Shown here in pieces: positions 47,058 through 64,000 of a stretch of DNA of 64,000 nucleotides. The stretch's first letter is position 1; the number at the start of each line of letters is the position of its first letter. This DNA comes from an uncultured Ardenticatenia bacterium (GTDB taxonomy: Bacteria > Chloroflexota > Anaerolineae > 4572-78 > NAK82). The stretch is from positions 8,185 through 72,184 of the forward strand of contig CAKZLO010000063.1 in NCBI GenBank assembly GCA_937127125.1, given 5' to 3'. A model generated the notes under the pieces. That model did no database searches. It saw only the letters and a program-made list of their open reading frames with translations, and was not told where the DNA came from. The position numbers and the translations under genes were made by a program.

Positions 47058-47086
47058 TTGACAAAGTGCCAATGTTTCAGTATAGT
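47058..47086 (+). promoter_or_regulatory. Sigma70-type promoter of the ABC/hydantoinase operon
   Basis: TTGACA-17bp-TATAGT; a divergent TGCTATAAT for nfeD lies at 47005-47013. Confidence 0.65.
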
Positions 47087-47262: not shown

Positions 47263-50022
47263 ATGCGCAGGCACCTTTGGATCCTAACCGCTCTGTTAGT
47301 AGTGCTCTCGATGTTTATGGCGCAGTGTGCGCCAGCGGCACCGACGCCCACTGAGGCACCTAAGGCAACGGAGACTCCTACCGAGGTACCGAAGGCTACG
47401 GAGACCCCTACCGAGGCACCCAAGGCCACAGAAGTCCCTACGGAAGCTCCTGCTGCTGAGACGCCTGAAGCTACCGAAGCTGCCAAGCCGGCAGAGGGCA
47501 AGCTGAAGATCGGCTTGGTGACGGACGTGGGCAAGGTGAACGACGGCACGTTCAACCAGTTTGCTTATGAGGGCTTCACGAAAGCGGCCAAGGAATTCGG
47601 CCTCGAAAGCGCCTTCATCGAGACGCAGCAACCGACCGACTATGAGAAAAATGTTAAGCAGTTCATCGACGAAGGCTATGGGATGATCGTGACCGTCGGC
47701 TTTATGATGGGAGAGACCACCAAGAAGATGGCGGAGGCATACCCTAACGTGAAGTTCGCCATCGTGGACTATGCCTATGACCCGGTCATCCCAAATGTGC
47801 AAGGCCTGGTGTTCCGCGAGGATCAATCCGGCTTTCTGGCTGGGGCACTTGCGGGACAGATGACCAAGAGCAAAGTGGTGGGGATCGTAGCTGGTATGGA
47901 GATCCCTGCGGTCAAGAAATTCCGCAACGGCTACGAAAACGGTGTGGCTTATGTATGCCCTGACTGTAAAGTGATTGGCGTCTACATCGATAGCTTTACC
48001 GACCCAGCGCGAGGTAAGGCGGCGGCTGAAAGCCAGATCGCTGAGGGCGCGGACGTGATCTTCGGCGCAGGCGGACCGACCGGATCGGGTGCTATCCTTG
48101 GTGCTGCACAGCAAGGGATCTGGGTGATCGGTGTTGACCAGGATGAGTACCTGACCACCTTCAAGGGTGGTAAAGAGAAGGGTGCAGACAAGTTGCTGAG
48201 CAGCGCGGGCAAGCGTGTAGATGTGGCTGTCTACAACGCAGTCAAGGCGGCAGCAACGGGCACGTTCAAGGGTGGTACAATGGTTTTCGATGCTGCCTCG
48301 AACGGCATAGGATTAACCCCCTTCCACGACGCAGAGAAAGCCATTCCCGCTGAGGTGAAAGCTAAGCTGGACGAGATCTTCAAGATGATGGCCGAGGGTA
48401 AGCTCGATACGGGTGTCGATCCTGCCACGGGTGACAAAGTCGGTCCAGCCAAGGTTGTGGGTGCGGAAGCAGCATCTGCTGAAGCTCTTCCAGCTGCTGC
48501 CGAAGAGGGTGTCTGGCTGCGTGTGAGCTACGCTTGGCCATGTTACATTGATCCAGCAGTTGGGTCCGACTTCGCTAGCTCGACCGCCTTGGCTAACTTA
48601 TACGACACGCTGGTGTTCCCGAATAAAGAGGGTGGCGTTGATCCGTGGGTAGCCGAGAAGTGGGAGACCTCCTCGGATGGCAAGACTTGGACGTTCACCA
48701 TCAAGAAGGGGATCAAGTTCCACGACGGTACCGAGATGAAGGCCAGCGATGTGGCATACAGTATGAACCGTATGCTCAAAATCGGTGAGGGTTACGCCTA
48801 CCTGTTCACCGACGTCGTTGAGAGCGCTACGGCGAAGGATGACTATACGGTCGAGTTCACACTCAAGCAGCCCACGGGTCTTTTCCTGCCCAGCTTGGCA
48901 CGGCTGTACATCTTGAACGAGAAGCTGGTACGTGCCAACACCAAGAAAGAGGGTCCGTATGGTGAAGAAGGTGATTACGGGAAGGATTATCTTCTGACCC
49001 ACGATGCTGGTTCCGGCTCCTACAAGGTCAAGGAATTCCCGCTTCAAGAATACCTGCTGATGGAGAAGAACAAGGATTGGTGGGGCACCTTTGCGCCCAA
49101 TGCGCCGGACTACTACAAGATGATTGGTACTACAGAAGCTTCCACCATCCGTACCATGATGTCTAACAAGGAGCTTGAGATCACCGATCAGTGGCAGACG
49201 CTCGAGTCCTTCAAAGCTTTGGATGAACTGCCCGGCGTGGATGTTGCGGCGTACCCGAATATGACCAGCTTCTACTTCATGATCAACAATCGGCTGGCGC
49301 CCACCGATGATGTGCACTGTCGCCGTGCCATGGCTTACGCTTTTGACTATGATGCCGCTGTGAAGCTGGAGTGGCCGGGGACCAAGCCAATGGTCGGACC
49401 AGTGAACGCTGCGCTGGGAGGCCATAATCCCAATGTCACAGTGTATCGGCGCGACCTGGACAAGGCAAAAGCAGAGCTAGATCAGTGCAAGTATAAAGGT
49501 GAGCTGGACAAGTATCCGGTGCAGTTCGTCTGGATTTCAGAAGTTCCGGACGAGGAAAAATTCGCGCTGCTCTTCCAAGCCAACATGGCAGAGATTGGTA
49601 TCCCTGTAGAGATCGTCTCCTCGCCTTGGCTCTCTGTGGTGGAAAACACGTCTAAGCAGGAAACCAGTCCCCACATCGTCAGCATCTATGTCTCGTCCGA
49701 TCTGCCCGAGGCGGGTCCTATGCTGAAGCAGCGATACCACTCTAGCTCGGCAGCGACGTGGTCGCAAAATGAGTGGCTGCTTGACAAGGAGCTGGACGCT
49801 GCAATCGATGATGCACTGAGCACATTGGATCAGGCGGAGCGTTTCAAGAAGTATCAAGACATCCAGGCCAAGCTCGCGGATCTGGCTCCTTCTATCTTCG
49901 TGTATGACCAGCTGGAGAAGCATGCCTATCAGGACTACGTCGACTGGCCAGCGGCCAAGGGTGAGGTCATCCCAATGATGGGATACGACCTGCTCGCCTT
50001 CAAGATCGGTGTGAAAAAGTGA
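47263..50022 (+). CDS. Lipoprotein fusion: BMP/PnrA-like binding domain + family-5 (Dpp/Opp) binding domain
   Basis: MAQC lipobox; DGTFNQ, GADVIF and IGVDQD (BMP); LYDTLV, WTFTIKKGIKFHDG and RRAMAYAFD (SBP_5); single open frame. Confidence 0.9.
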   Translation: MRRHLWILTALLVVLSMFMAQCAPAAPTPTEAPKATETPTEVPKATETPTEAPKATEVPTEAPAAETPEATEAAKPAEGKLKIGLVTDVGKVNDGTFNQFAYEGFTKAAKEFGLESAFIETQQPTDYEKNVKQFIDEGYGMIVTVGFMMGETTKKMAEAYPNVKFAIVDYAYDPVIPNVQGLVFREDQSGFLAGALAGQMTKSKVVGIVAGMEIPAVKKFRNGYENGVAYVCPDCKVIGVYIDSFTDPARGKAAAESQIAEGADVIFGAGGPTGSGAILGAAQQGIWVIGVDQDEYLTTFKGGKEKGADKLLSSAGKRVDVAVYNAVKAAATGTFKGGTMVFDAASNGIGLTPFHDAEKAIPAEVKAKLDEIFKMMAEGKLDTGVDPATGDKVGPAKVVGAEAASAEALPAAAEEGVWLRVSYAWPCYIDPAVGSDFASSTALANLYDTLVFPNKEGGVDPWVAEKWETSSDGKTWTFTIKKGIKFHDGTEMKASDVAYSMNRMLKIGEGYAYLFTDVVESATAKDDYTVEFTLKQPTGLFLPSLARLYILNEKLVRANTKKEGPYGEEGDYGKDYLLTHDAGSGSYKVKEFPLQEYLLMEKNKDWWGTFAPNAPDYYKMIGTTEASTIRTMMSNKELEITDQWQTLESFKALDELPGVDVAAYPNMTSFYFMINNRLAPTDDVHCRRAMAYAFDYDAAVKLEWPGTKPMVGPVNAALGGHNPNVTVYRRDLDKAKAELDQCKYKGELDKYPVQFVWISEVPDEEKFALLFQANMAEIGIPVEIVSSPWLSVVENTSKQETSPHIVSIYVSSDLPEAGPMLKQRYHSSSAATWSQNEWLLDKELDAAIDDALSTLDQAERFKKYQDIQAKLADLAPSIFVYDQLEKHAYQDYVDWPAAKGEVIPMMGYDLLAFKIGVKK
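47347..47451 (+). repeat. About 3.5 tandem 30-bp repeats encoding PTE(A/V)PKATE(T/V)
   Basis: cccactgaggcacctaaggcaacggagact / cctaccgaggtaccgaaggctacggagacc / cctaccgaggcacccaaggccacagaagtc. Confidence 0.85.
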
Positions 50023-50105: not shown

Positions 50106-51134
50106 ATGAGACTGGTCATCTTCATCCTCAAGCGAGCACTGCATTCCATTTTTGTGCTGCTTGGCCTCTCTGTGGTGATCTTTGCCATTTCACGTGTCCT
50201 TCCCGGGGACCCGGCACGCATGGCAGTAGGTGCCAGAGCACCCCAATGGGTCGTGGACAATTTGCGCGCGCAGATGCACCTTGATGAGCCGTTGTATGTT
50301 CAATATGGCTACTGGCTGATCGACGCCTTACAGGGTAAGTTTGGCATTTCCCTGGTCACGCGTCGCGAGGTAGCCGAAGACATCAAGGAGTTCTTCCCGG
50401 CTACCTTCGAGCTGGCTTTGTTTGCCGGGATCTTGATGGGTGGACTTGGTATCCTATTAGGCACCATTTCGGCACGCCACAAGGACAAATGGATAGACAA
50501 CGTTGTGCGTGTCCTTTCTTATCTAGGTGTGGTGACCCCAGCATTCGTATTCGCGATTATATTCATGCTTGTGTTTGGCTACTGGCTAAAGTGGTTGCCT
50601 ACTATTGGTCGTCTCAGCGAGGGTCTGACCCGTCCGCCTGTGATCACCGGACTGATGACCATTGACGCATTGCTGGCTGGTGACCTGGTTGTCTTTTGGG
50701 ATGCTCTGAAGCACATTGTACTGCCGGCTATTGCCCTGGCCATGGGGGGCCTAGCGCAAGAAGCACGCATCACGCGCGCGACGATGTCGGACAATCTCAC
50801 TAAGGACTACATCGCCGCGGAACGAGCGCTGGGTATACCGGAGCGTGTTATCATGGGCAAGTATCTGCTCAAACCCTCGCTCATACCGACGATCTCTATT
50901 CTGGGCCTTGACTTCGCCGGTACACTGAGCAGCGCTTTCCTGGTGGAGCTGATCTTCAACTGGCCAGGCATATCACGCTATGGCATCAATGCCATGTTGC
51001 GTAAGGACTTAAACGCCATCGCAGCTGTGATTCTGGTGCTGGGTGTTGTCTTCATCGTGGTCAACATCATAGTAGATATCGTGGTCGCGTATCTCGACCC
51101 GCGGATTCGTCTCAGTGCTGAAAGGAGCGAGTGA
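50106..51134 (+). CDS. dppB: Dpp/Opp ABC transporter permease B
   Basis: PGDPA, FPATFELA, ELIFNWPG and LDPRIR motifs. Confidence 0.92.
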   Translation: MRLVIFILKRALHSIFVLLGLSVVIFAISRVLPGDPARMAVGARAPQWVVDNLRAQMHLDEPLYVQYGYWLIDALQGKFGISLVTRREVAEDIKEFFPATFELALFAGILMGGLGILLGTISARHKDKWIDNVVRVLSYLGVVTPAFVFAIIFMLVFGYWLKWLPTIGRLSEGLTRPPVITGLMTIDALLAGDLVVFWDALKHIVLPAIALAMGGLAQEARITRATMSDNLTKDYIAAERALGIPERVIMGKYLLKPSLIPTISILGLDFAGTLSSAFLVELIFNWPGISRYGINAMLRKDLNAIAAVILVLGVVFIVVNIIVDIVVAYLDPRIRLSAERSE

Positions 51135-51135
51135 C

Positions 51136-52080
51136 GTGACCAAAGTGATGGGAGACTGGGTATCCGAACTGGGAGGCAGAGCAGAATCGGCTACCTCGAT
51201 AAGTTGGCGGGAGCTGCAACGGCGCAGCCGTCGCGAAAACATCGGCCGCGCTTGGTACAAGTTTTCGCGCAATCCACTATCGGTAGCTGGACTGGCTATC
51301 GTCCTGACAATCGTTTTCCTGGCCATTTTTGCCCCTTACGTAACGCCTTATCCTCATCACGCCGGCCCCTTCACCGATTTCGAAAACGCTAAATTGCCTC
51401 CTAACCTGAAGTACCTCTTTGGTACTGACACGATTGGACGCGACATCCTCACGCGGGTGATCTTTGGTTTCCAGGACGCCCTGCTGATGGGCATTGTGGT
51501 GTTGGCTTTGGTGGTGCCCCCGGGAGTGTTACTCGGTCTGGTGGCTGGCTACTACCAGGGCACGTGGATAGATACAATTATCATGCGCATTACCGATATC
51601 TTCTTGGCGGTGCCGCCGCTTATTCTCGCTTTGGCAATTGCCTCTGTGCTCAAACCTAATCTGATGAACTCGATGATGGCTGTGTCGCTCATGTGGTGGC
51701 CGTGGTACGCGCGGCTGGTCTATGGTCTCACAAGTCAACTGCGTAATGAGTATTTTGTGAAATCAGCGGAGACAATCGGTGCAAGCAAAGCACATATTCT
51801 CTTCCGCGAGATTTTGCCAAACTGCGTCTCTCCCATCTTCACAAAAATGAGTTTGGATATGGGATGGGTCATTCTGATCGGCTCGTCACTTAGCTTCGTT
51901 GGTTTGGGGGTGCAGCCTCCTAAACCGGGGTTGGGCACAATGGTGGCCGATGGCGCGCGCTATCTGCCTGACCAATGGTGGATCCCAGTCTTTCCGGCTT
52001 TGGGCATTGTGGTGATCGTGCTGGGCTTCAATCTCCTGGGCGACGGATTGCGCGATCTACTTGCAGCGGAAGAGGCGTAA
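51136..52080 (+). CDS. dppC: Dpp/Opp ABC transporter permease C
   Basis: FGTDTIGRD, LSFVGLG and FNLLGDGLRD motifs; start approximate. Confidence 0.92.
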   Translation: MTKVMGDWVSELGGRAESATSISWRELQRRSRRENIGRAWYKFSRNPLSVAGLAIVLTIVFLAIFAPYVTPYPHHAGPFTDFENAKLPPNLKYLFGTDTIGRDILTRVIFGFQDALLMGIVVLALVVPPGVLLGLVAGYYQGTWIDTIIMRITDIFLAVPPLILALAIASVLKPNLMNSMMAVSLMWWPWYARLVYGLTSQLRNEYFVKSAETIGASKAHILFREILPNCVSPIFTKMSLDMGWVILIGSSLSFVGLGVQPPKPGLGTMVADGARYLPDQWWIPVFPALGIVVIVLGFNLLGDGLRDLLAAEEA

Positions 52081-52087
52081 TTGCGAA

Positions 52088-53068
52088 ATGAATACTCCTC
52101 CTCTGCTTGAAGTCCGCAATTTGCAAGTGCATTTCAGGGTGTTTGGTGGTTATCTTAAGGTATTAGATGGCGTCAACTTAGTCGTACGCGCCGGCGAAAA
52201 AGTGGGCCTGGTGGGCGAATCGGGCTGTGGTAAAACCACTACGATGAAGGCTATTTTGCGAATACTGCCTGAACCGCCCGCGCAGATCGTAGGAGGCCAC
52301 GTATTGTTCCGCGGGAAAGACGTGTTGAAGATGCGCCCTCAGGAGTTGCGTCGACTACGCGGTCGTGGCATTTCGATGGTTTTTCAAGACCCTACTGCAG
52401 CTTTAAACCCTGTATTCACGATTGGACAACAACTGGGAGATGTTATCCGTTATTCACACAGTGACGGAAGGGTGGACGCTGGACAAATCCGATTAAAGGC
52501 TCTGCAAGCTCTGAAGGAAGTTGCGCTGGCAGATCCTGAGAGGCTGCTGGATAGCTATCCTATTCAACTAAGTGGGGGCATGCGACAGAGAGTCTGTATC
52601 GCAATGGCACTGGCTACGCAACCGGAGTTGTTGATCGCCGATGAGCCAGGCACCTCTCTGGACGTAACCATCCAGGATCAGATCCTGCGGTTGCTGCACA
52701 ATCTAGTAGTGGAGCGCAACACTTCTGTCATTCTTATCACGCATACGCTAGGAGTGGTGCGTGAGGTGACAGACCGGGTATATGTTATGTATGCTGGCAC
52801 CATTGTCGAGTCGGCGCCCACTAAGGTCCTGTTTGCAAATCCAATGTTCCCTTACACACGCGGCCTGATGCAATCGGTGCCCCGCCTTTCGGGTGGCGGA
52901 GTGGCCGAAGGGATACCGGGCCGTATACCCAACTATCTTAATCCACCCACTGGATGTCGTTTTCATCCGCGATGTCCCCACGTTATGGAAGTTTGTAGAC
53001 ATGAGAAACCCCCTGTATTTACGGTGGGCGAGGAGCACTACGTCGCCTGTTATCTCTATGCGTCATAG
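52088..53068 (+). CDS. dppD: Dpp/Opp ABC transporter ATPase D
   Basis: GESGCGKT, LSGGMRQ, ADEP and GCRFHPRC motifs. Confidence 0.93.
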   Translation: MNTPPLLEVRNLQVHFRVFGGYLKVLDGVNLVVRAGEKVGLVGESGCGKTTTMKAILRILPEPPAQIVGGHVLFRGKDVLKMRPQELRRLRGRGISMVFQDPTAALNPVFTIGQQLGDVIRYSHSDGRVDAGQIRLKALQALKEVALADPERLLDSYPIQLSGGMRQRVCIAMALATQPELLIADEPGTSLDVTIQDQILRLLHNLVVERNTSVILITHTLGVVREVTDRVYVMYAGTIVESAPTKVLFANPMFPYTRGLMQSVPRLSGGGVAEGIPGRIPNYLNPPTGCRFHPRCPHVMEVCRHEKPPVFTVGEEHYVACYLYAS

Positions 53069-53089: not shown

Positions 53090-54091
53090 ATGACCCCTAT
53101 TCTAGAATATAAGAACCTCAAGAAGTACTTCACCGTCGGACATCGTGGCTTGCTAAGACGCGAGCCAATCACGGTCAAGGCCGTGGACGGTGTGTCGTTC
53201 GTGATCAATAAGGGTGAAGTGTTTGGTCTGGTAGGCGAGTCTGGCTCAGGCAAAAGCACAGTCGCATATACAACTATTGGAATGTACCGACCCACTTCAG
53301 GGGCGATCGAGTTTCAGGGAGAGAGTCTCTTCACTAAAGAAGGCAAGCGCCCTCGACACATCAAGAAGGAAATCCAAATTGTCTTCCAGGACCCAGGCTC
53401 GTCTCTGAATCCGCGCCGGAGCGTGAAAGAAATTCTGGAACTGCCGCTCAGCATCCATCAGCCGGCCAAGAAGCACATTGGGCGTGTTGCCGAGCTATTG
53501 GAGATGGTAGAGCTTCCAGTAGATTATATGTACAAGTACCCTCACGCACTGAGCGGAGGCGAGAAACAGATTGTGGCGATCGCCCGAGCGTTGGCAACCG
53601 AGCCTTCTTTCATTATTCTCGACGAGCCTACTTCTGCTCTGGATGTCTCTATCCAGGGAAAGATTATCAACCTGTTATTGCGTTTGAGGCAGGAGTTCCA
53701 CCTCTCGTATTTGTTCATAACACACGACTTGAGCCTAATGCGCAATGTCGCCTCGCGTGTCGCGATCATGTATCTGGGCAAGATCTGCGAAGTCGCGGAG
53801 GCAAGTGAGTTCTTTCGTAACCCCAAGCATCCTTACACGCAGATGCTATTGTCTTCCATCCCTGTGGTTTCGGAGGAGGAAGAGAAGCTCAAGCCAAAGC
53901 GTGTACAATCGCGTGGCGAGATACCCAGCCCGGTTAATATTCCCAGCGGATGCAGCTTTCACTTGCGCTGTCCGTACAAGATGGATATTTGTCCACGCGT
54001 TGACCCAGAGATGGTGGACACTGGTGAAGGACATTACGTGCGTTGTCATCTGTACCCAGTTCAGGAAAACAGCAGACCTGTTGCAGTGTAG
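53090..54091 (+). CDS. dppF: Dpp/Opp ABC transporter ATPase F
   Basis: GESGSGKS, LSGGEKQ, LDEP and GCSFHLRC motifs. Confidence 0.93.
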   Translation: MTPILEYKNLKKYFTVGHRGLLRREPITVKAVDGVSFVINKGEVFGLVGESGSGKSTVAYTTIGMYRPTSGAIEFQGESLFTKEGKRPRHIKKEIQIVFQDPGSSLNPRRSVKEILELPLSIHQPAKKHIGRVAELLEMVELPVDYMYKYPHALSGGEKQIVAIARALATEPSFIILDEPTSALDVSIQGKIINLLLRLRQEFHLSYLFITHDLSLMRNVASRVAIMYLGKICEVAEASEFFRNPKHPYTQMLLSSIPVVSEEEEKLKPKRVQSRGEIPSPVNIPSGCSFHLRCPYKMDICPRVDPEMVDTGEGHYVRCHLYPVQENSRPVAV

Positions 54092-54135: not shown

Positions 54136-56187
54136 ATGAGAGTAGCCACCGACATTGGGGGCACCTTCACTGATTTGGTGTATCTAGATGAGCAAACCGG
54201 GCAGATCGGCGTGGCCAAGGCATCTACCACGCCAGCTAACTTTGCGCAGGGGGTGATTGACACGCTGCACAAAGCGGCCATTAGGGTGCCTGACACAACT
54301 TTCTTCGTACATGGTTCCACGGTAATTATCAACGCATTAACGGAGCGCAAGGGAGCCAAGACAGCTTTGATCACTACCCGAGGATTTCGCGACGTCTTGG
54401 AAATCACCCGTGCCAACCGCCCCGACCTATACAATATGTATTATACCAAGCCGAAGCCGTTTGTGCCGCGTTATCTCCGCCTAGAGGTCCGCGAGCGGAT
54501 GAACTACAAGGGCGAGGTCTTGGAACCTCTGCACGAGGAGGATGTACGCCGAGCGGCTGAGCTCTGTCGCAAAGAAAAAGTAGAAGCAATTGCTGTCTGC
54601 TTCTTGCATTCGTACGCCAATCCGGCCCATGAAATTCGCTGTGGTGAGATTCTGCGCGAAATGGTCCCGGAAATCCCGGTGACACTTTCCCATGAGATCA
54701 CCCAGGAATGGCGCGAATATGAGCGTACCAACACAGCAGTACTGAACAGCTATGTGATGCCTGTTGCCAAGTTCTATCTAGCGAATCTGGAGAGGAACCT
54801 GGCCGACCTGGGAATGGGCAAAGTGTATCATATTATGCAATCCAACGGTGGCACAGCGACTTTCGATATGGGCAAGCGTGTGCCGATCAACACGGTCGAA
54901 TCAGGTCCTGTGGCAGGCGTGATTGGGGCAGCCGTGATCGGCAATTTGATTGGCGAACGCAATGTGATTTCCCTCGACGTGGGTGGGACGACAGCAAAGA
55001 CATCGCTGGTCGAAAATGGCACACCACGCATCACCACCGAATACAGGATCGAGTGGCGTCGTGACTACGCGGGTTATCCTATCCTGGCTCCGACGGTTGA
55101 CATTGTCGAGATCGGCGCCGGGGGTGGTTCTATCGCCTGGGTGGATAACGCTGGTGCCCTAAAGGTAGGACCAGTGAGTGCCGGTGCTGACCCGGGACCA
55201 GCGTGTTATGGGCGTGGCGGTGACAAACCCACCGTGACGGATGCCAACGTCCTGGCAGGTCGCATCAACCCGGAGTATTTCTTGGGCGGTGAAATTCGCC
55301 TTGACGTGGAAAACGCCCGACGCGCTATGAAACCCATTGCCGACCATTTCAAGGTGAACGTGGAAGAAGCTGCGATGGGTGTGATTCGATTGGCCGACGC
55401 TAATATGATAAACGCGCTCAAGCTGGTATCAGTGCGGCGAGGTTATGATCCTCGCGACTTCGTGTTAATTGCCTTTGGCGGCGGGGGTGCTATGCACGCG
55501 GGTGCGCTGGCGCGGGAGCTGCGTGTCAAGGAGGTGCTCGTTCCGAACGAGCCAGCTGTCTTTTCCGCTTGGGGAATGCTGATGACCGACCTACGGCAAG
55601 ATTTCATCCGCACGCGTATCCAGCGCGCCGACCAGATTTCCAGCTCAGCCCTTACTGAGATCTATCAGGAAATGGAGGCGGTAGCGCGGCAAAACCTGCT
55701 CGATCAGCACATACCGGAAGAACGCATGATGTTCCAACGCTTTGCTGACATGCGTTACCTGGGCCAAGAGCATACAGTAAAGGTACCCATTCCGGGGGGA
55801 ATCATCACCGAAGAACAGATGCCCGAGATCTGTGAACGCTTCCACCGGCTGCATGAGCACACCTATACATTCCGCCTGGACACCCTGATCGAATTTGTTA
55901 ACTATCACGTAACCGGTTTCGGAGTTGTGGAGAAGCCCCAGCTCAAGAAGCTGGATGGAGCTCGGGGCAGCTTGGAGGCAGCACGCAAAGGAACACGACG
56001 TGTCAACTTCGATGAGCTGGGATACCACGACGCACCCATTTATGAGCGCAGTCTCTTGCCGGTCGGGGTCTCTATCGCGGGTCCTCTGGTTATTGAGGAA
56101 CCAGCGTCCACTACAGTGGTGTTCCCAGATCAGACGGTATACCGTGACGAATACGGGTTCTTGCGCATCCACACCACGCGCGACTGA
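54136..56187 (+). CDS. hyuA: Hydantoinase/oxoprolinase A (ATPase) subunit
   Basis: DIGGTFTD, SGPVAG, DVGGTT, GAGGGS, SAGADPGP and FGGGG motifs. Confidence 0.93.
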   Translation: MRVATDIGGTFTDLVYLDEQTGQIGVAKASTTPANFAQGVIDTLHKAAIRVPDTTFFVHGSTVIINALTERKGAKTALITTRGFRDVLEITRANRPDLYNMYYTKPKPFVPRYLRLEVRERMNYKGEVLEPLHEEDVRRAAELCRKEKVEAIAVCFLHSYANPAHEIRCGEILREMVPEIPVTLSHEITQEWREYERTNTAVLNSYVMPVAKFYLANLERNLADLGMGKVYHIMQSNGGTATFDMGKRVPINTVESGPVAGVIGAAVIGNLIGERNVISLDVGGTTAKTSLVENGTPRITTEYRIEWRRDYAGYPILAPTVDIVEIGAGGGSIAWVDNAGALKVGPVSAGADPGPACYGRGGDKPTVTDANVLAGRINPEYFLGGEIRLDVENARRAMKPIADHFKVNVEEAAMGVIRLADANMINALKLVSVRRGYDPRDFVLIAFGGGGAMHAGALARELRVKEVLVPNEPAVFSAWGMLMTDLRQDFIRTRIQRADQISSSALTEIYQEMEAVARQNLLDQHIPEERMMFQRFADMRYLGQEHTVKVPIPGGIITEEQMPEICERFHRLHEHTYTFRLDTLIEFVNYHVTGFGVVEKPQLKKLDGARGSLEAARKGTRRVNFDELGYHDAPIYERSLLPVGVSIAGPLVIEEPASTTVVFPDQTVYRDEYGFLRIHTTRD

Positions 56188-56216
56188 CATCGGTTCAATA
56201 AGGAGGGTATTTCGAT

Positions 56217-57965
56217 ATGGCACGCAATGGGAATGGGGTTGACCCTTTCACCCTCGAGATCATCAGCGAAAGCTTGCGCGCAATCGGCGACGAGATGTTC
56301 GTCACAATGCAGCGCACGAGTATGAGCGTTATCATCTATGAGACGCTCGACTATGCGACCGGCCTGACCGATGCCCAGGGGCGACTCATCACTCAGGGCA
56401 ATGGGGTCACGCTTTTCCTCGGCACGCTTGACTATGGTGTGCGCAGCGTGCTGGAAAAGTTCGGCTATGATGGGCTAAAACCGGGCGATATCGTGATCAC
56501 GAACGATCCTTACGGCGGCGGAGGAACCCACCTCTCCGATGTATCGTTGATCATGCCCATCTTCTACGACGGCAAAATTGTCGCCTTCGCTGCCAACAAG
56601 GGACACTGGACAGAGGTCGGTGGAATGGCAGCGGGTAGCTGGACCACTGATTCCACCGAAATCTATCAGGAAGGCCTGCAATTCCCAGTCATCAAGATAT
56701 TTGAGGAAGGCAAGATCAACCAAGGCTTGGTGGAACTCATCCGAGCGAACGTGCGTACGCCGGACATGAGCATTGGCGATATGATGGCTCAGGCGGCATC
56801 ATTGCGCATCGCTGAGCGACGTTTCCGCGAACTATGCGACAAATACGGCGTCGAAACGGTTACGGCGGGTGTTGAGAAATTGATGAACGACAGTGAAACG
56901 CTGATCCGCCAGGAGCTGCGCAAGATCCCGCCAGGTGTGTATGAAGCGGAAGATTACATTGACGACGACGGAATCTCGGAAGGGCCATTCAAGGTTCAGG
57001 TAAAAGTTACCGTCACACCGGATAAGCTCATCTGCGACTACACCGGCAGCCATCCTCAAGTGTTGGGACCGGTAAACGCTGGATGGACAGCCCTCGTCGC
57101 TGCTGCGCGCGCCATTTTCCTCGCGCTGACGGATCCATCCATCCCTACCAACGATGGGTGTTTCCGACCGTTGGAGATCATTTGCCCCCCGCGAACTATC
57201 TTCACGGCTGAACGGCCTGCCGCAGTATCCACTTACTGGGAGACGATGTTGTACGCGGCAGACCTGATATGGAAGGCGATGGCACCCGTGTTGCCACACC
57301 GCTTGCCTGCAGGACATTTTCTCAGTGTATGTGCTCCTATCATCGCGGGTTTGCATCCTGACACGGGTTCGCTGTTCATCCTTGTTGAGCCGAGCGCAGG
57401 CGGTTGGGGTGCCGGATCAACCAAAGACGGCGAGAACGGGATGTTCTGTGTGGGCGATGGGGAGACCTACAATGTCCCCGTGGAAGTATGTGAGCAACGT
57501 TACGGGGTGCTGGTCGAGCAATACGCTTACGACATTACAGAAGGCGGCGCCGGCAAATTCCGTGGTGGGCGTGGTATGGTGCGCGATTATCGTATTCTGG
57601 CCGACAGCGCGCAGCATACAGGTACCTTCGGACGCTTTAAGTTCCTGCCGTGGGGTATGGCTGGTGGTAGCCCCGGTTCTCGCAACTACATGAAGATCAT
57701 CTGGGCAGACGGACGCGAGCCGTTGGTGGTGGGCAAAATCGCACGACTACCCGTGAAGAAAGGGGATCTTGTGCGTCTCGTGACCGGCACCGGCGGAGGC
57801 TATGGTGACCCTTGTGAGCGCCCGGTGGAGAAAGTGGTCGAGGATGTCCGGGATGGCTATATCACCCCCGAAATGGCACGTGATCAATACGGTGTGGTGG
57901 TTGACCCGGAGACGTTGCAGGTGCTGGAGCTGGTGGGCAAACGCGCACAAAAACGGGCAGGGTAA
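56217..57965 (+). CDS. hyuB: Hydantoinase/oxoprolinase B subunit (1 of 3)
   Basis: ETLDY, NDPYGGGGTHLSD, HWTEVGG, YQEGL and GGGYGDP motifs. Confidence 0.93.
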   Translation: MARNGNGVDPFTLEIISESLRAIGDEMFVTMQRTSMSVIIYETLDYATGLTDAQGRLITQGNGVTLFLGTLDYGVRSVLEKFGYDGLKPGDIVITNDPYGGGGTHLSDVSLIMPIFYDGKIVAFAANKGHWTEVGGMAAGSWTTDSTEIYQEGLQFPVIKIFEEGKINQGLVELIRANVRTPDMSIGDMMAQAASLRIAERRFRELCDKYGVETVTAGVEKLMNDSETLIRQELRKIPPGVYEAEDYIDDDGISEGPFKVQVKVTVTPDKLICDYTGSHPQVLGPVNAGWTALVAAARAIFLALTDPSIPTNDGCFRPLEIICPPRTIFTAERPAAVSTYWETMLYAADLIWKAMAPVLPHRLPAGHFLSVCAPIIAGLHPDTGSLFILVEPSAGGWGAGSTKDGENGMFCVGDGETYNVPVEVCEQRYGVLVEQYAYDITEGGAGKFRGGRGMVRDYRILADSAQHTGTFGRFKFLPWGMAGGSPGSRNYMKIIWADGREPLVVGKIARLPVKKGDLVRLVTGTGGGYGDPCERPVEKVVEDVRDGYITPEMARDQYGVVVDPETLQVLELVGKRAQKRAG

Positions 57966-58017
57966 GCTACACCCTGCCTATATGCACCACCCATATTGTG
58001 TTCTGTAGCGCTTTCGC

Positions 58018-59799
58018 GTGCCAACTCCCATGCGGTGTGATCCCTTCACGGCCGAGATCATAGCGGAAGCATTCCGTGCTTCCGCCGAAGAGATGTTCCT
58101 CACTCTCAAACGCACAAGCCAAAGCCCCATCATTTACGAAGTGCTCGACTGTGCCTGTGGACTGACAACGCCTGAAGGCCACCTGGTGGCTGAAGCGGAG
58201 GGTATCCCGGGTTTCATTGGGTGTTTGAGCTTCGGGGTGCGCTCGATCCTGCGCAAGTTCGGCCCAGCCCATATATGCCCTGGTGACATCTTCATCACCA
58301 ACGACCCTTATGAAGGGGGAGGAACCCATCTCTCCGATGTCACGCTGGTAGCTCCTGTGTTCTACGACGAAGAGCTGGTTGCCTTCGTTGCCAACAAGGC
58401 GCATTGGACCGAGATGGGAGGGATGGCAGCAGGCAGCTGGACCACCGACGCGACTGAGATCTTTCAGGAGGGTCTGCAGCTACCCGGACTCAGGATCTTT
58501 CACCGAGGACAGCCCGACCGAGCTCTGCTTGACCTCATTGAAGCCAACGTACGCCTCCCCACTATGACCTTGGGCGACTTATACGCGTGTGCAGCCTCCC
58601 TAAGGGTGGGTGAAACAAGCTTCGTCGAAATATGCCGTAAGTATGGGGTGCAGGCGGTGCGGGACGCAATGCAAAGCATCCTAGCACGCGGCCGCAGAAC
58701 AGCATGGGCGTGTGTGCAACAGATACCCTATGGTAGCTACTACGCTGAAGACTGGATTGATGACGATGGCATAGGCGAGCAACCCTTGCACGTTTGCGTG
58801 CGTGTTGTCGTTGACGAACAAGGTTTCACCGCTGATTTCACCGGTGCACCGCCTCAGACGATTGGCCCCATCAACACGACAAGGGTGGGATTGGAAGTCT
58901 CGTGCCGCGAGATCTTCAAAGCAATCGTGGCACCGCACGAACCAAATAATGAGGGTTTGTTCGATCCACTGCGGGTTGTCTGTCCAGATGGCACCATTTT
59001 CACTGCTCGGCGTCCAGCTCCCGTTTCGATATACTGGGAAACAGGTGCTTACGCAAGCGAGCTGATCTGGCGTGCACTCTACCCGGTGGCGAGTGACCGA
59101 TTGCCGGTGGGCCACTCCTTGAGTGTTTGCGGCACAATTCTCAGCGGCATCGATGGCGAGAGAGGACCATTTGTGTTAGTTGAGCCTCAGGCAGGGGGAT
59201 GGGGAGCGACCTGCAATCGCGATGGTGAATCCGGACTGGTAGTCGCAGGCGATGGCGAGACGTATGTGATGCCAGTCGAAGTATGCGAACAACGTTATCC
59301 GGTATTGGTGGAACAGTATCGCTTTAACACTGGGCCGGCGGGAGCCGGTCAATTCCGGGGTGGCTTTGGTCTTGTGCGCGACTATCGCATTCTATGTGCA
59401 CGCGCCGAGCTGACCGCCACGTTTGGCCGCCATCGCTTCCCTCCATGGGGGTACGCAGGTGGTGCAAGTGGGTCGCCCAATACAATCGAAATCTACTATG
59501 ATAGTGACAGCGTGGATGTGGGCAAACCGACGTTGCGCGCTGGCAAGCTGGCACGTTGTCCGTTACGGCGCCACGACTTAGTACGTTTGATCACTGGCGT
59601 GGGTGGCGGTTACGGTGACCCATTGACGCGAGATGTGCAGCGTGTCTGGGAAGATGTCCGCAACGAGTTCCTCCGACCCGAGGAGGCAGCGAGCGTTTAC
59701 GGCGTGGTATTGACTCCAGATGGGAGCGCAGTAGACCTTGCAGCGACCACAGCGCTGCGTGAGGCGCGTCGTCAATCTCATGGCCAGAGGTACCCATGA
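58018..59799 (+). CDS. hyuB: Hydantoinase/oxoprolinase B subunit (2 of 3)
   Basis: EVLDC, NDPYEGGGTHLSD, HWTEMGG and GGGYGDP motifs; start 58018 or 58030. Confidence 0.92.
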   Translation: MPTPMRCDPFTAEIIAEAFRASAEEMFLTLKRTSQSPIIYEVLDCACGLTTPEGHLVAEAEGIPGFIGCLSFGVRSILRKFGPAHICPGDIFITNDPYEGGGTHLSDVTLVAPVFYDEELVAFVANKAHWTEMGGMAAGSWTTDATEIFQEGLQLPGLRIFHRGQPDRALLDLIEANVRLPTMTLGDLYACAASLRVGETSFVEICRKYGVQAVRDAMQSILARGRRTAWACVQQIPYGSYYAEDWIDDDGIGEQPLHVCVRVVVDEQGFTADFTGAPPQTIGPINTTRVGLEVSCREIFKAIVAPHEPNNEGLFDPLRVVCPDGTIFTARRPAPVSIYWETGAYASELIWRALYPVASDRLPVGHSLSVCGTILSGIDGERGPFVLVEPQAGGWGATCNRDGESGLVVAGDGETYVMPVEVCEQRYPVLVEQYRFNTGPAGAGQFRGGFGLVRDYRILCARAELTATFGRHRFPPWGYAGGASGSPNTIEIYYDSDSVDVGKPTLRAGKLARCPLRRHDLVRLITGVGGGYGDPLTRDVQRVWEDVRNEFLRPEEAASVYGVVLTPDGSAVDLAATTALREARRQSHGQRYP

Positions 59800-61487
59800 C
59801 AAACTCGAGGTCACAACCGGACCCGTTCACCGTCGAGATCATCCGTGAGCAGCTCATCGCGGCAGCCGAGGAGAGCTTTGTGGTACTCGGTCGTACCAGC
59901 CAAAGCCCCATCATCTATGAGGTGTTGGACTATGCCTGTGCCATTACAGACCACAATGGTGACTTGATTGCGCAAGCGAACGGGGTGCCAGGCTTCCTGG
60001 GCACGCTCTCGTTCGCGGTCAAAGCCGTTCTGCAGAAGTTCGGTTCAAATGCGATGCACCCCGGGGATGTCTTTATCACGAACGATCCCTATCAAGGTGG
60101 TGGAAACCATCTTTCCGACGTGGCATTGATCGCACCCATCTTCTGCCAGAACCGGTTGATCGCCTTCAGCGTGAACAAGGCACATTGGACTGAGGTAGGC
60201 GGCATGGCCGCCGGCAGCTGGACGACTGACAGCCGCGAGATCTTCCAAGAAGGTCTGCAGTTTCCGGCCATCCATCTCTTTCGGGAAGGTAAGCCAGAAC
60301 AGGGATTGCTTGAGCTGATCGCGGCGAACGTGCGCACGCCTGAGCGCACTCTGGGTGATCTGTATGCTGGGGTGGCTGCTCTCAGAAGTGCAGAACGTCG
60401 CATCGGAGAAATGTGTCACCGCTACGGCGCAGACGTGCTAGGCGCGAGTATGGCAGCTATCCTGGATCACGGCGAGAAGCTGGCGCGACAAGCTCTAGCC
60501 AGACTGCCCAAAGGCTCTTTCTTCGCTGAAGATTGGATGGATGATGACGGATTGTCAGACGAGCCAGTATATGTTTGCGCGAGAGTAACGATCACGGATG
60601 ACGCTTTTGTCGCCGATTTCACCGGTTCGGCGCCCCAGGTGTCTGGTCCCATTAATTGCACACGCACGCGACTGCATTCCGCTTGTCGCACCATCTTCAA
60701 GGCGATCACGGATCCAAAATCACCGGTCAACGAAGGGTGGTTCCGTCCGCTGCAGGTAGTGTGTCCCGAGGGCACCGTCTTCACAGCGCGCCGCCCAGCA
60801 CCCGTGTCCACGTACTGGGAGACAGGCGCTTATGCTGTCGACCTCCTCTGGCACGCTCTTTTCCCGGTGCTGCCCGATCGGCTGACAGCAGGTCATTCGC
60901 TGAGCGTCTGCGGCACTGTGATCAGCGGTCGTGACGAGAATGGCGACTATTTCATCTTGGTCGAGCCGCAGGCAGGCGGCTGGGGAGCCGGAGCAACCAA
61001 GGATGGTGAGAGCGGTCTAGTGGTCGTCGGTGACGGCGAGACATACGTGATGCCAGTCGAAGTGTGTGAAACGCGCTACCCTTTGTTGGTAGAGCAATTC
61101 ACGTTTAATGTACAGCCAGCCGGCGCCGGAATGTATCGTGGGGGATTTGGGCTGATACGTGACTATCGGCTGCTCTCGGCCTCTGCACAGCTTACCACCA
61201 CCTTTGGCCGGCACAAATATGCACCATGGGGAGCGGCGGGCGGTCAACCGGGTTCGCCAAATGGAGTGGCGATCATCCCTGCAGGCGCAAGCGAGCCCAT
61301 CTTGTGGAAGGGTAAGCTCGCTCGTTATCCTCTGAGACGAGGCGATGTTGTGCGCCTGGTAACCGGTGTGGGCGGTGGCTACGGTGACCCACGGCGACGT
61401 GATCCTGACGCAGTGCGAGAGGATGTGCGCAATGGCTTTCTGACAGCCGATCAAGCTCGTATGATATATGGCGTCGTAGTACACTGA
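59796..61487 (+). CDS. hyuB: Hydantoinase/oxoprolinase B subunit (3 of 3)
   Basis: EVLDY, NDPYQGGGNHLSD, HWTEVGG and GGGYGDP motifs; ATGA overlap with the previous gene. Confidence 0.92.
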   Translation: MTNSRSQPDPFTVEIIREQLIAAAEESFVVLGRTSQSPIIYEVLDYACAITDHNGDLIAQANGVPGFLGTLSFAVKAVLQKFGSNAMHPGDVFITNDPYQGGGNHLSDVALIAPIFCQNRLIAFSVNKAHWTEVGGMAAGSWTTDSREIFQEGLQFPAIHLFREGKPEQGLLELIAANVRTPERTLGDLYAGVAALRSAERRIGEMCHRYGADVLGASMAAILDHGEKLARQALARLPKGSFFAEDWMDDDGLSDEPVYVCARVTITDDAFVADFTGSAPQVSGPINCTRTRLHSACRTIFKAITDPKSPVNEGWFRPLQVVCPEGTVFTARRPAPVSTYWETGAYAVDLLWHALFPVLPDRLTAGHSLSVCGTVISGRDENGDYFILVEPQAGGWGAGATKDGESGLVVVGDGETYVMPVEVCETRYPLLVEQFTFNVQPAGAGMYRGGFGLIRDYRLLSASAQLTTTFGRHKYAPWGAAGGQPGSPNGVAIIPAGASEPILWKGKLARYPLRRGDVVRLVTGVGGGYGDPRRRDPDAVREDVRNGFLTADQARMIYGVVVH

Positions 61488-61596: not shown

Positions 61597-62694
61597 ATGA
61601 ACGAGCTCGAACAGCGAATGAACATCCTGCGTGCCGCAATGGCCAACGCTGATGTAGACATAGTCGCGATTGCCCCCAGTGATATGATGCGCTACCTGGC
61701 AGGGTATGCCTCCTACCCGGACGAGCGAGTTTGCATGCTGCTGGTCTCACAACACACAGCCGCTGCGGTCGTGCCAGCCCTCAACGCTGGGGAATGGCGT
61801 GCGCATACCAATCTGCCATTGCATATCTGGGCGGATAACGAGGGTCCACAAACAGCCCTGTCCGCTGCTCTGTCAGCCCTCGATGTTTCCCGCATACGAC
61901 GGCTAGCCGTAGACGGCGAGATGCGCGCCGATTTCTTGCTCCCTTTGCTGAAAGCGGCAGGCAATCCAGAAGTCATCACTCTTGCAGGTTTGGGTGCTCC
62001 ACTGAGGTTGTGTAAATCCTCCACCGAGATCGAGTTGTTGCAGGCCGCGGCGGCACAGGCTGACCGTGCTATGCAAGCTGCCATCGAAGCGTGCCGTCCA
62101 GGTGTCACCGAAGCACAGGTTGCTTGGGCAGCCGAGCAAGCATTCCGAATGAATGGGGCAGACTACGTCTGTTTCACACTGGTCGCGTCCGGACCGAATA
62201 GCGCTTTTCCTCATCATCGTAGCGGACAACGTGTGCTGCAGCTCGGTGATGCGATCATCATTGACATTGGTGCCTCGCTCAACCACTACAAATCGGACAT
62301 TACGCGCGTAGTACATCTGGGGGAACCGTCGCCGGAGTTCCTAAAAGCGTACGAGGCCGTCTTGCGAGCTAACGAAGCCGCTCGTGCTGTCGTCCGACCC
62401 GGGGTGTCCGCGGCAACGGTTGATCGGGCCGCGCGCACAGTGCTGGAAACAGCTGGCTATGGCGAGTACTTTGTTCACCGTACCGGGCACGGCCTGGGGC
62501 TGAGCACCCATGAGCCGCCTTGGATCATGGCTGGCAATGAGCAACCGCTAGAAGAGGGGATGGTGTTCAGCATCGAGCCGGGCGTGTATCTGCCCGGTCA
62601 GTTCGGCATACGCATTGAGGACATCGTAGTGGTCACCGCTTCGGGTGCCCGCGTTCTAACTGGTTTCGATCATCAGCTGACCGTCAAACGCTAG
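61597..62694 (+). CDS. pepQ: Xaa-Pro dipeptidase/aminopeptidase (M24B)
   Basis: All metal ligands present: IDIG, SDITR, GHGLG..HE, IEPG, RIED. Confidence 0.88.
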
Positions 62695-62749: not shown

Positions 62750-63091
62750 ATGGTCAAACTCACCGTTATGTATAACCTGCCCCCGGGTGCAGATCACGAG
62801 GCATTCCTGCGCTGGCGTACCACAGAGCATCAGCAGGATAATCTGGCCATCCCGGGTCTTCTTAAGACTGATTTCTATGTGATTCATGAAGCTTGGGAGC
62901 AGCCGACACCCCCTTACCGCTACATGACCGAGGCATATTTCCCGGACATGGAGACCCTGCGCGCCTTCTTCTTTGCACCGGACTATCAGGCGAAGTTGCG
63001 CGAGTGGCTGAAGATGATCGCCGATCCCGTGTTTCTCATCTCCGAGGAAGTGATAACATCCGTCGTGCAAGAAGTAGAAGGGAAACAATGA
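62750..63091 (+). CDS. EthD-like dimeric alpha/beta barrel protein
   Basis: MVKLTVMY..P..D...F...H...IPGL...E.YF.D pattern; AAGGAG RBS. Confidence 0.7.
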   Translation: MVKLTVMYNLPPGADHEAFLRWRTTEHQQDNLAIPGLLKTDFYVIHEAWEQPTPPYRYMTEAYFPDMETLRAFFFAPDYQAKLREWLKMIADPVFLISEEVITSVVQEVEGKQ

Positions 63092-64000
63092 ACGTATTGC
63101 GTCATCTCTTTATCGCGCTATCACAAAGCGCTCGGGCACGCCAGTTGGTGATGCAATATGGTCCAATGCGCCGGCTGGCGCGCCGTTTTATCGCCGGCGA
63201 GACGATCGACGAAGCGATTGCTGTAGTCAGAGAGCTGAATCAGGGTGGCATCCTGGCAACGTTGGATCACCTCGGAGAGAACGTCAGCAGTCAGGAGGAC
63301 GCCGAACGAGCGGCCCAAGAGTACCGAGAGCTGGCACATCGCATCGCAGAGGAGGCTCTGCAATCTTCTATCTCGGTCAAACCAACGCATGTGGGACTCG
63401 ATTTCGGCGAAGATTTCTGTTACAGTCAGCTGCGCACAGTTGTGGACACAGCGCGCGATCTGAACCTGACCGTCGAAGTAGATATGGAAGGCTCGACCTA
63501 TACACAAGCGACACTTAATGTCTTTCACCGACTGTTGGATGCGTACAGTAATCTACGCGTTGCCTTGCAAGCTTATCTCTATCGCACCGAGAAAGATCTC
63601 GAGCGACTGATCGAGCGAGGCAGCAGTGTGCGTCTGTGCAAGGGCGCCTATGATGAGCCTTCCAGCATTGCATGGCGCAACAAGGTGGACGTGGACGCCA
63701 GCTATGCGCGCCTGATGCACATGATGTTAAGCGATCAAGCACTTCAGAATGGTTTCTATCCCGCGCTAGCCACCCATGATCACAACCTGATCCTACAGGT
63801 GGAGCGTGAAGCAGCTAGGCGGGAGATGGATAGGAGGCGTTTCGAGTTCCAAATGCTGTACGGTGTACGGCGTGACTGGCAGCAACGCCTTGCCAACGAC
63901 GGGTACCGCGTGCGCATCTATGTGCCGTATGGGACGCAATGGTATCCCTACTTTATGCGACGGCTGGCAGAGCGTCCGGCGAATGTATTGTTCATCACCC
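63088..64000 (+). CDS. putB: Monofunctional proline dehydrogenase (3'-truncated by the window edge)
   Basis: Not in the ORF track; translated by hand: RFIAGE, LGE, DMEGS, LQAYLYRT, RLCKGAY, ATHD, FQMLYG, YVPYG, YFMRRLAERPAN. Confidence 0.93.
   Translation, partial: MNVLRHLFIALSQSARARQLVMQYGPMRRLARRFIAGETIDEAIAVVRELNQGGILATLDHLGENVSSQEDAERAAQEYRELAHRIAEEALQSSISVKPTHVGLDFGEDFCYSQLRTVVDTARDLNLTVEVDMEGSTYTQATLNVFHRLLDAYSNLRVALQAYLYRTEKDLERLIERGSSVRLCKGAYDEPSSIAWRNKVDVDASYARLMHMMLSDQALQNGFYPALATHDHNLILQVEREAARREMDRRRFEFQMLYGVRRDWQQRLANDGYRVRIYVPYGTQWYPYFMRRLAERPANVLFIT

Follow-up and report, generated by a model that had tools for sequence, protein, structure and literature searches.

To our knowledge, the studied members of the HyuA/HyuB family have either one type of ATPase subunit and one type of catalytic subunit or both fused 1:1, and acetophenone carboxylase (Apc) is the only one known to us in which paralogous subunits stand together in one complex. 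In the classical hyu cluster of Pseudomonas sp. NS671, hyuA and hyuB are found with hyuC, which encodes a carbamoylase, and hyuE, which encodes a racemase. Here we analysed a 64-kb window (the whole stretch of DNA under study, 64,000 nucleotides of contig CAKZLO010000063.1) from a metagenome-assembled genome (MAG) of the Chloroflexota (3.73 Mb, 95% complete), in which a single hyuA gene (A) is followed by three hyuB genes (B1, B2 and B3). We lean, with little more than even confidence, to the reading that one HyuA ATPase serves the three HyuB proteins as alternative catalytic modules, forming parallel A-B enzymes in an operon that would break down a proline-linked cyclic amide after its import; the binding of each B to A, the reaction chemistry and the substrate class are what we infer. 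What is new here is the set of three intact B copies, a broad family of operons that combine different B genes with A subunits of a single orthogroup, and a gene context that hints at the substrate class. Our literature search gave no description of a family enzyme with several B types.

The template for the mechanism is CapAB of Pseudomonas jessenii (PDB 6YRA; PMC8453981), a two-gene ATP-dependent lactamase with an ASKHA-type ATPase module in A, an Asp-His-Asp-His site in B and an (alpha-beta)2 assembly around a B-B core. In the part of that report available to us, CapA activates by phosphorylating substrate or bicarbonate, a tunnel of ~40 Å leads to the metal site of CapB, the assembly is A-B-B-A with CapB residues 129-174 forming the B-B contact, and Asp41, His99, Asp102 and His124 of CapB are the metal ligands, each of which gives an inactive enzyme when mutated to Ala (PMC8453981). 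A and B1 of the window align with CapAB end to end (E = 1e-113 and E = 2e-69). In contrast to CapAB, the operon has three B types instead of one, its proteins score far below the 1000-bit cut-off of NF050156/NF050157 (A 572; B1, B2 and B3 284, 219 and 253), and the genes beside it encode a peptide-type importer, a prolidase and proline dehydrogenase (ProDH). The pocket also differs: the operon has Glu42 where CapB has Leu38, Trp142 where CapB has the proposed acid/base Tyr136, and Trp341 where CapB has Thr336.

N-methylhydantoinase (PDB 7HK5 and related entries) gives the best match among solved structures to A (E = 3e-139) and also to B1 (E = 1e-89), and it has Glu at the position of B1 Glu42; however, it is a fused A-B chain of 1288 residues, fixed at 1:1. 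Apc of Aromatoleum aromaticum (PDB 5L9W), a member of the same superfamily, holds paralogous subunits in one complex, but there it is the A-type subunit that is duplicated (alpha, alpha'), with a single B type and small subunits, and the enzyme is a carboxylase. Against the NCBIfam models of acetophenone and acetone carboxylases, A stays at 322 and the B proteins at 122 at most, far below the cut-off of 1500, and we found no small-subunit gene between hyuA and the prolidase gene (PepQ) in the open reading frame (ORF) and Pfam tables. The classical hyu cluster resembles the orthologous clusters outside the window's genus, whose core is HyuA, HyuB and a racemase of the Asp/Glu/hydantoin family. 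In contrast to that cluster, the operon is without a carbamoylase domain and has prolidase and ProDH in its place, the racemases of related loci have Val/Ile at the Asn/Asp12 position, and the window's genus is without a racemase gene.

One ATPase gene and three catalytic genes

The four genes correspond exactly to the interval that an earlier note on this DNA had assigned to one A and three B genes (54136-61487).

54136..56187, + strand: hyuA, ATPase (alpha) subunit, 683 residues; AAGGAGG ribosome-binding site 7 nucleotides (nt) upstream
56217..57965, + strand: hyuB1, catalytic (beta) subunit, 582 residues; ribosome-binding site AAGGAGGG
58030..59799 (alternative GTG start 58018), + strand: hyuB2, catalytic subunit paralog; Hydantoinase_B match
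59796..61487, + strand: hyuB3, catalytic subunit paralog, 563 residues; start overlaps the B2 stop by 4 nt (ATGA)

For B2, the ATG at 58030 is more likely the start than 58018, because B2 orthologues open with M-x-x-DPFT. HyuA matches Hydant_A_N (E = 6e-55), Hydantoinase_A (E = 7e-99) and Hydant_A_C (E = 4e-16), each over the full profile, and retains the ATP-site residues that correspond to CapA Asp11 and Asp295, together with the adenosine motif GxxPGP (TDIGGTFTD, LDVGGTT and GADPGP in the alignment to 6yra_A). B1, B2 and B3 match Hydantoinase_B with 593, 534 and 588 bits, each over profile positions 1-519 of 519, and their pairwise identities are 52% (B1-B2), 58% (B1-B3) and 61% (B2-B3). 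In the HMMER alignment of B1 with 6yra_B, the metal tetrad D45/H105/D108/H130 (B1 numbering) falls on CapB Asp41/His99/Asp102/His124; it is intact in B1, B2 and B3 and unvarying across 26 aligned related B sequences. The claim that all three B genes are full length and keep the metal ligands is borne out by these alignments, and we found in the translations the motifs named with it, LD(Y/C), HLSD and HWTE, as well as the three variable segments and, in both B2 and B3, SQSPIIYEVLD, YWETGAYA and GHSLSVCGT. By every sequence criterion tested, A and the three B genes are members of the HyuA/HyuB superfamily, with ATP-dependent cyclic-amide hydrolysis as their putative activity.

When we scanned the whole genome, we found exactly three Hydantoinase_B matches, all in the tandem at 56217-61487, and two Hydantoinase_A matches, the operon hyuA and a 673-residue ORF on contig 13 (L001:5837-7858, G000:C13). 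The contig 13 ORF shows 26% identity over 335 N-terminal residues and no likeness further on; it has Hydant_A_N and the first half of Hydantoinase_A alone, lies in an unrelated gene context, and is followed by a 525-residue ORF that has no Pfam match and is not HyuB-like. We rejected it as a partner of B2 or B3 because its C-terminal half is absent and no HyuB-like gene adjoins it. The operon hyuA is the sole canonical copy in the genome (95% complete), and the gene ratio of 1 A to 3 B departs from the one-A-type, one-B-type composition of the HyuA/HyuB and CapAB family.

Orthogroups, selection and pocket residues

In an IQ-TREE phylogeny of 29 B sequences, B1 (100/99), B2 (100/100) and B3 (99/98) form separate clades, and B2 and B3 are joined at 88/87. 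In a FastTree phylogeny of 137 B sequences, the same clades appear for B1 (n = 22, support 0.995), B3 (n = 19, 0.997) and B2 (n = 25, 1.0), together with a fourth clade, B3' (n = 9, 1.0), which in a second lineage fills the slot behind B2. B3, B3' and B2 form a 'Gly-Gly' clade of 53 sequences (0.986), and several single-pair B lineages fall between B1 and this clade at weakly supported nodes. As judged from these trees and the aligned residues, B1, B2 and B3 are old separate orthogroups across genera, each with a fixed pocket signature. The earlier note had proposed sequential duplication; the closeness of B2 and B3 holds in both trees (88/87; 0.986), and the order of duplication has moderate support alone.

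B2 orthologues (at least 70% identity) are present in 6 of the 56 genomes of the order, in one family only. Hydantoinase_B matches occur in at least 150 of the 301 phylum genomes scanned, with at most four per genome scored. Among the homologues listed, two fused A-B proteins of the anaerobic amoebae Pelomyxa and Anaeramoeba (P0006, P0008) are 46-48% identical to B2 and are nearer to it than most of the A-B fusions from bacteria. In another genus of the family (L010:8946-10700, G011:C364), the B1 orthologue has a single in-frame TAG near residue 168, while A, the racemase gene, B2, B3, PepQ and ProDH are all open; either this B1 is a pseudogene or the TAG stems from faulty assembly of the MAG, which is 71% complete.

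To quantify selection, we calculated the ratio of nonsynonymous to synonymous rates (dN/dS) among same-genus loci (L002-L005 and L018) with unsaturated dS (0.1-1.0). The amino acid identities below are those of the window to the same-genus loci.

A: identity 94%; dN/dS 0.030-0.063
B1: identity 97-99%; dN/dS 0.010-0.023
B2: identity 81%; dN/dS 0.055-0.146
B3: identity 85-86%; dN/dS 0.049-0.095
PepQ: identity 79-80%; dN/dS 0.056-0.178
ProDH: identity 74-79%; dN/dS 0.078-0.130

All three B genes are under purifying selection. Relaxed selection on B2 and B3, which the earlier note had named as a possible refutation, is not seen in these loci: their values are far below 1 and similar to those of the adjoining prolidase. 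When we used the Nei-Gojobori method against the window itself, the ranking was the same, although dS is saturated there (1.2-2.0). B1 is unusually constrained inside the window's genus; since B1 dS is not low, constraint rather than a recent transfer explains its extreme conservation. Compared across genera (L011), B1 has a dN of 0.155, close to the 0.160 of A and the 0.173 of B3. Between L004 and L018, the segment that starts with the binding-protein gene and ends with B1 has a dS of 0.9-1.6, but B2 and B3 have 0.22-0.27, a mosaic that points to a recombination breakpoint at the B1/B2 junction and to operon halves with separate histories.

To compare the pockets, we took 15 CapB pocket positions (PMC8453981, in the part available to us), placed them on B1 by hand through a pairwise alignment, and read them in the orthologues. 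The residue is the same in B1, B2 and B3 at 8 of the 15 positions (Glu42, Trp142, Trp341, Val371, Leu389, Pro392, Thr417 and Phe471). The following positions vary (B1 numbering).

Position 66: B1 Leu; B2 Gly; B3 Gly
Position 344: B1 Met; B2 Gly; B3 Gly
Position 374: B1 Pro or Thr; B2 Thr; B3 Thr
Position 409: B1 Met or Leu; B2 Leu; B3 Leu
Position 411: B1 Cys or Ser; B2 Val; B3 Val
Position 64: B1 Val; B2 Ile; B3 Val
Position 412: B1 Val; B2 Ala; B3 Val

In the window, the signatures are V64 L66 M344 P374 M409 C411 V412 for B1, I64 G66 G344 T374 L409 V411 A412 for B2, and V64 G66 G344 T374 L409 V411 V412 for B3. Leu66 and Met344 are fixed in B1 orthologues, and Gly/Gly is found in every B2 and B3 orthologue. 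The segment just past the first Asp, where the three B proteins had been said to differ, includes pocket positions 64 and 66. With bulky residues in B1 and glycines in B2 and B3, the B1 pocket would be narrower and the B2 and B3 pockets wider.

Catalytic-gene content around one ATPase orthogroup

We collected related loci from a scan of a genome collection, from regions of related genomes, and from a metagenome scan seeded with a B2+B3 alignment (71 loci). Gene order was assigned by blastp against the window proteins, with labels that follow the tree clades. Rac denotes the racemase gene. This sample is biased to B2/B3 relatives, and we give loci, not frequencies.

Transporter-A-B1-Rac-B2-B3-PepQ(-ProDH), the commonest full form: L010, L020, L022, L034
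A-B1-Rac-B2-B3': L065, L069, L080
A-B1-B2-B3 without Rac (the window's genus): window, L003, L004, L018
A-B1-Rac-B3: L011, L029, L030
A-Rac-B2-B3': L068, L075
A-Rac-B3: L085
A-B1-Rac-B2: L063, L082
A-B1-B3': L076, L081
A-B3: L031, L013, L091; a second, distant Ax-Bx pair lies behind in L013 and L091
A-B1 only: L016, L032

In the same-genus loci L003, L004 and L018, the order A-B1-B2-B3-PepQ-ProDH is kept. The A subunits of these loci form one orthogroup (19 sequences, support 1.0), and the B contents interleave in the A tree: the full-set locus L022 has L085 (Rac-B3) as its sister, and full sets surround both L016, which has B1 only, and L068, which lacks B1. Because B content interleaves within one A orthogroup, B subunits of the Gly-Gly clade occur with the shared A in loci that lack B1, and vice versa. 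This interleaving is the strongest argument for exchangeable B partners, which it supports indirectly.

Some loci differ in where A lies. In L014 (G023:C43:42000-58000), genes for two HyuB paralogs, which keep the metal tetrad and are 39% identical to B1, are interspersed with genes for an ABC importer, a racemase and a PepQ-like protein, with no HyuA within 16 kb. In the single-contig genome G008, only the last 63 residues of an A orthologue are found upstream of a B1-type gene (L012, C1:96000-114000), behind which come Rac and a distant Ax-Bx pair; elsewhere, 2.27 Mb off, a B3-type gene (80% identical) adjoins a 46%-identical A (L089, C1:2369000-2387000).

If one ATPase serves all three modules, HyuA would use ATP to phosphorylate substrate or bicarbonate, by homology with CapAB, and the activated species would pass through a tunnel to the B metal site, where the ring amide would be hydrolysed. 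The complex would be A-B-B-A around a B-B core, after CapAB. B1, with its bulky pocket, and the B2/B3 lineage, with two glycines, would be specificity modules gained and lost singly while A stays, and the opened product would be processed by the prolidase and then by ProDH. One ATPase with a choice of catalytic subunits would mean a new route by which the family varies its substrate range, and would offer a natural toolkit for the ATP-driven opening of stable lactams, relevant to nylon monomers and valerolactams. The proposal of a shared ATPase, made in the earlier note, gains indirect support from the lack of a second canonical hyuA, the intact and selected B genes, the pocket signatures of the clades and the combinatorial B content. 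Several points weigh against it. A-B binding, expression of B2 and B3, and activity are predicted; a single A gene with three B genes poses a question of stoichiometry, and all 44 fused A-B relatives are 1:1; and we saw no obvious ribosome-binding site upstream of B2. The pocket mapping is based on a pairwise alignment to CapB at ~30-35% identity, not on structure, and it sets B2 and B3 apart at just two of the 15 positions, so that the 'three specificities' may in fact be two. B2 is never the sole B, a pattern that a dependent subunit would explain as readily as an add-on module would, and the B genes without A in 9-16 kb (L014, L026) mean that A-B adjacency is not strictly needed.

The point about B2 leads to an account that we hold possible although distinctly less probable, in which the proteins form an obligate hetero-oligomer: a mixed B-B core would unite at least B2 with another B in one enzyme with non-equivalent catalytic subunits. 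Of the 25 loci with B2, 23 have another B and 2 are on contigs too short to judge; B3 or B3' directly follows B2 in 20 (not in L060, L063, L070 and L082; L064 is undecidable), and the ATGA overlap of B2 stop and B3 start is found in the window and in L002-L005. Both B2 and B3 are kept under selection despite their near-identical pockets, and Apc offers a precedent with paralogous alpha and alpha' in one complex (NCBIfam names; PDB 5l9w). A B-B dimer is the core of CapAB, acetone carboxylase and acetophenone carboxylase (PMC8453981), and mixed B-B cores appear sterically plausible. The equivalent of the CapB-CapB interface (B1 135-180) shows 65-78% identity among the paralogs, compared to about 55-62% overall and 37-41% to Bx, but this region also holds His130 and Trp142 (catalytic and pocket residues), which could account for the conservation; for the A-facing helices, identity among the paralogs is 52-63%. 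In contrast to what an obligate hetero-oligomer predicts, B3 occurs without B2 in L011, L013, L029, L085 and L091, and B1 occurs alone in L016, so that just B2 could be obligately heteromeric, and the partner of B2 varies (B3, B3', or B1 only in L063 and L082). Among 45 longer homologues, we found 44 A-B fusions, one B with pentapeptide repeats and no B-B fusion, a weak point since only the best 8000 candidates were scored.

We consider it unlikely that B2, B3 or both depend on an ATPase from another locus, or need no ATP. Two B genes with no A within 16 kb (L014), a B3 with no A in 9 kb upstream (L026), the B3-type gene of G008 that adjoins a 46%-identical A 2.27 Mb from the B1-type gene, and a genome that at 95% completeness has room for a missed hyuA would all fit such an arrangement. 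However, the genome has a single canonical hyuA, in its other HyuA-like ORF the homology stops short and the gene surroundings are unrelated, and loci with A-Rac-B2-B3' or A-(Rac-)B3 have a Gly-Gly-clade B right behind A with no B1; moreover, the metal site of the solved relative is reached by a tunnel from A (PMC8453981). Still less likely, to the point of being improbable, is that the extra B copies are redundant and serve dosage only or decay neutrally. The nonsynonymous rate of B2 and B3 is ~4-10x that of B1 within the genus, and G011 has the in-frame TAG in B1, but the dN/dS of B2 and B3 equals that of the adjoining prolidase, the paralogs are old (52-61% identity) and form separate orthogroups across genera and the 71 metagenome loci, and the pocket differences are fixed in each clade.

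Operon context and substrate class

From 47263 to the window end, the genes form a single co-directional row on the + strand, from importer through hyuA and three hyuB genes to prolidase and ProDH, as read from the ORF listing and from Pfam/NCBIfam scans of the window. A PepQ-like gene stands directly behind the last lactamase gene in the window and in 14 of 16 related PepQ-bearing loci, L091 and L013 included. In L026, PepQ follows B3, with no A detected in ~9 kb upstream, and in L014 the last B is followed by a 29%-identical PepQ-like gene.

In most related lineages the cluster also has the racemase gene, whose product belongs to the Asp/Glu/hydantoin racemase family (PF01177, E = 1e-25 to 1e-30). 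The ~880-nt 'gap' between B1 and B2/B3 in L010 and L011 was considered as a decayed B2; this was ruled out, as it holds the racemase gene. In the window's genus we found no Rac, with a B1-B2 spacer of 25-64 nt in the four loci that show the spacer, and a protein query for the cluster racemase found none in the genome, which has two other PF01177 genes elsewhere. The window's genus has lost the racemase gene of the related loci.

The closest solved structure to the L010 racemase is OpaE (9qbx, E = 1.8e-18), and those closest to the L011 racemase are allantoin racemases (5lfd, 3qvj); both catalytic Cys are kept in the two proteins. In the available text of a study of these enzymes (PMC12661438), allantoin-hydantoin racemases have Asn/Asp12 (100%), Met17, Thr/Ser118 and Thr119, the OpaE-like signature is Val/Ile/Leu20, Tyr/Phe/Trp25, Val/Ile/Leu131 and Gly/Pro132, and NozR, of the same racemase subfamily, has a role in cyclo-D-Trp-D-Trp biosynthesis. 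When we read the alignments by hand, the cluster racemases showed Val/Ile, Phe, Val and Gly at these HP1/HP2 positions, OpaE-like at 4 of 4. OpaE (PDB 9QBX) and NozR are biosynthetic, whereas the setting here is catabolic, and the likeness concerns related loci, not the window.

Because of the racemase signature, the importer of peptide type, and the genes for prolidase and ProDH that lie behind the lactamase genes in many of the loci, a proline-containing cyclic amide is the substrate that we would propose, with diketopiperazines fitting best; pGlu-Pro or other lactams are an alternative. Otzen et al. speculated that some annotated oxoprolinases may be cyclic dipeptide hydrolases (PMC6061476), and our literature search on names of cyclic-dipeptide hydrolases returned, in the available text, that one speculative sentence only; a search for work joining diketopiperazine hydrolysis to an ATP-dependent hydantoinase returned nothing. 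According to Perzborn et al., diketopiperazines are not cleaved by peptidases, and cyclo(Pro-Tyr) was degraded by none of the tested strains; the available text of that 2013 survey names no enzyme for cyclic dipeptide degradation (PMC3852281). A tentative extension, which we regard as rather doubtful, is that the operon family is the missing catabolic route for proline-containing 2,5-diketopiperazines, with the B paralogs splitting the substrates by side-chain size (B1 narrow, B2 and B3 wide). In such a route, cyclo(Xaa-Pro) would be taken up by the Dpp-like importer, ATP-driven HyuA with an exchangeable HyuB would open the peptidase-resistant ring to Xaa-Pro, the prolidase would cleave Xaa-Pro, ProDH would oxidise the proline, and in most lineages the OpaE/NozR-like epimerase would correct D-residues. 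The conserved link between importer, prolidase, ProDH and OpaE-like epimerase would bear on which enzymes degrade cyclic dipeptides.

The remaining features of the row are the following.

47058..47086, + strand: promoter-like site TTGACA-17-TATAGT upstream of the operon; 11 of 12 consensus positions matched, top of 14 sites in the scanned region, by consensus match alone
47263..50022, + strand: substrate-binding lipoprotein, 919 residues; PF02608 (Bmp/PnrA-like, residues 86-361) fused to PF00496 (family-5, peptide/nickel/opine type, 459-829)
50106..51134, + strand: ABC permease, Opp/Dpp/Nik type (Pfam/NCBIfam)
51115..52080, + strand: ABC permease, OppC/DppC type (Pfam/NCBIfam)
52061..53068, + strand: ABC ATPase, OppD/DppD type (Pfam/NCBIfam)
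53090..54091, + strand: ABC ATPase, OppF/DppF type (Pfam/NCBIfam)
61597..62694, + strand: M24B Xaa-Pro dipeptidase (PepQ/prolidase-like); top solved relatives are dipeptidase/prolidase entries, E = 1e-69 to 1e-57
62893..64000, + strand: ProDH; the ORF ends ~20 nt beyond the window and is complete in L015

A 9-bp GC-rich hairpin lies across the B1 stop codon (57956-57978), with no T-run behind it on the coding strand; we dropped it as a regulatory element because three same-genus loci, whose spacers are shorter, do not have it. Upstream of the binding-protein gene is a divergent NfeD gene, and pirin-like and alcohol-dehydrogenase-like genes lie beyond ProDH. The 919-residue binding protein begins with a signal peptide with Cys, followed by PTEA-rich repeats. 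Its Bmp/PnrA and family-5 fusion is present in L004 too, and it appears to be genus-specific, because the counterparts in distant loci align over the family-5 part only (~500 residues).

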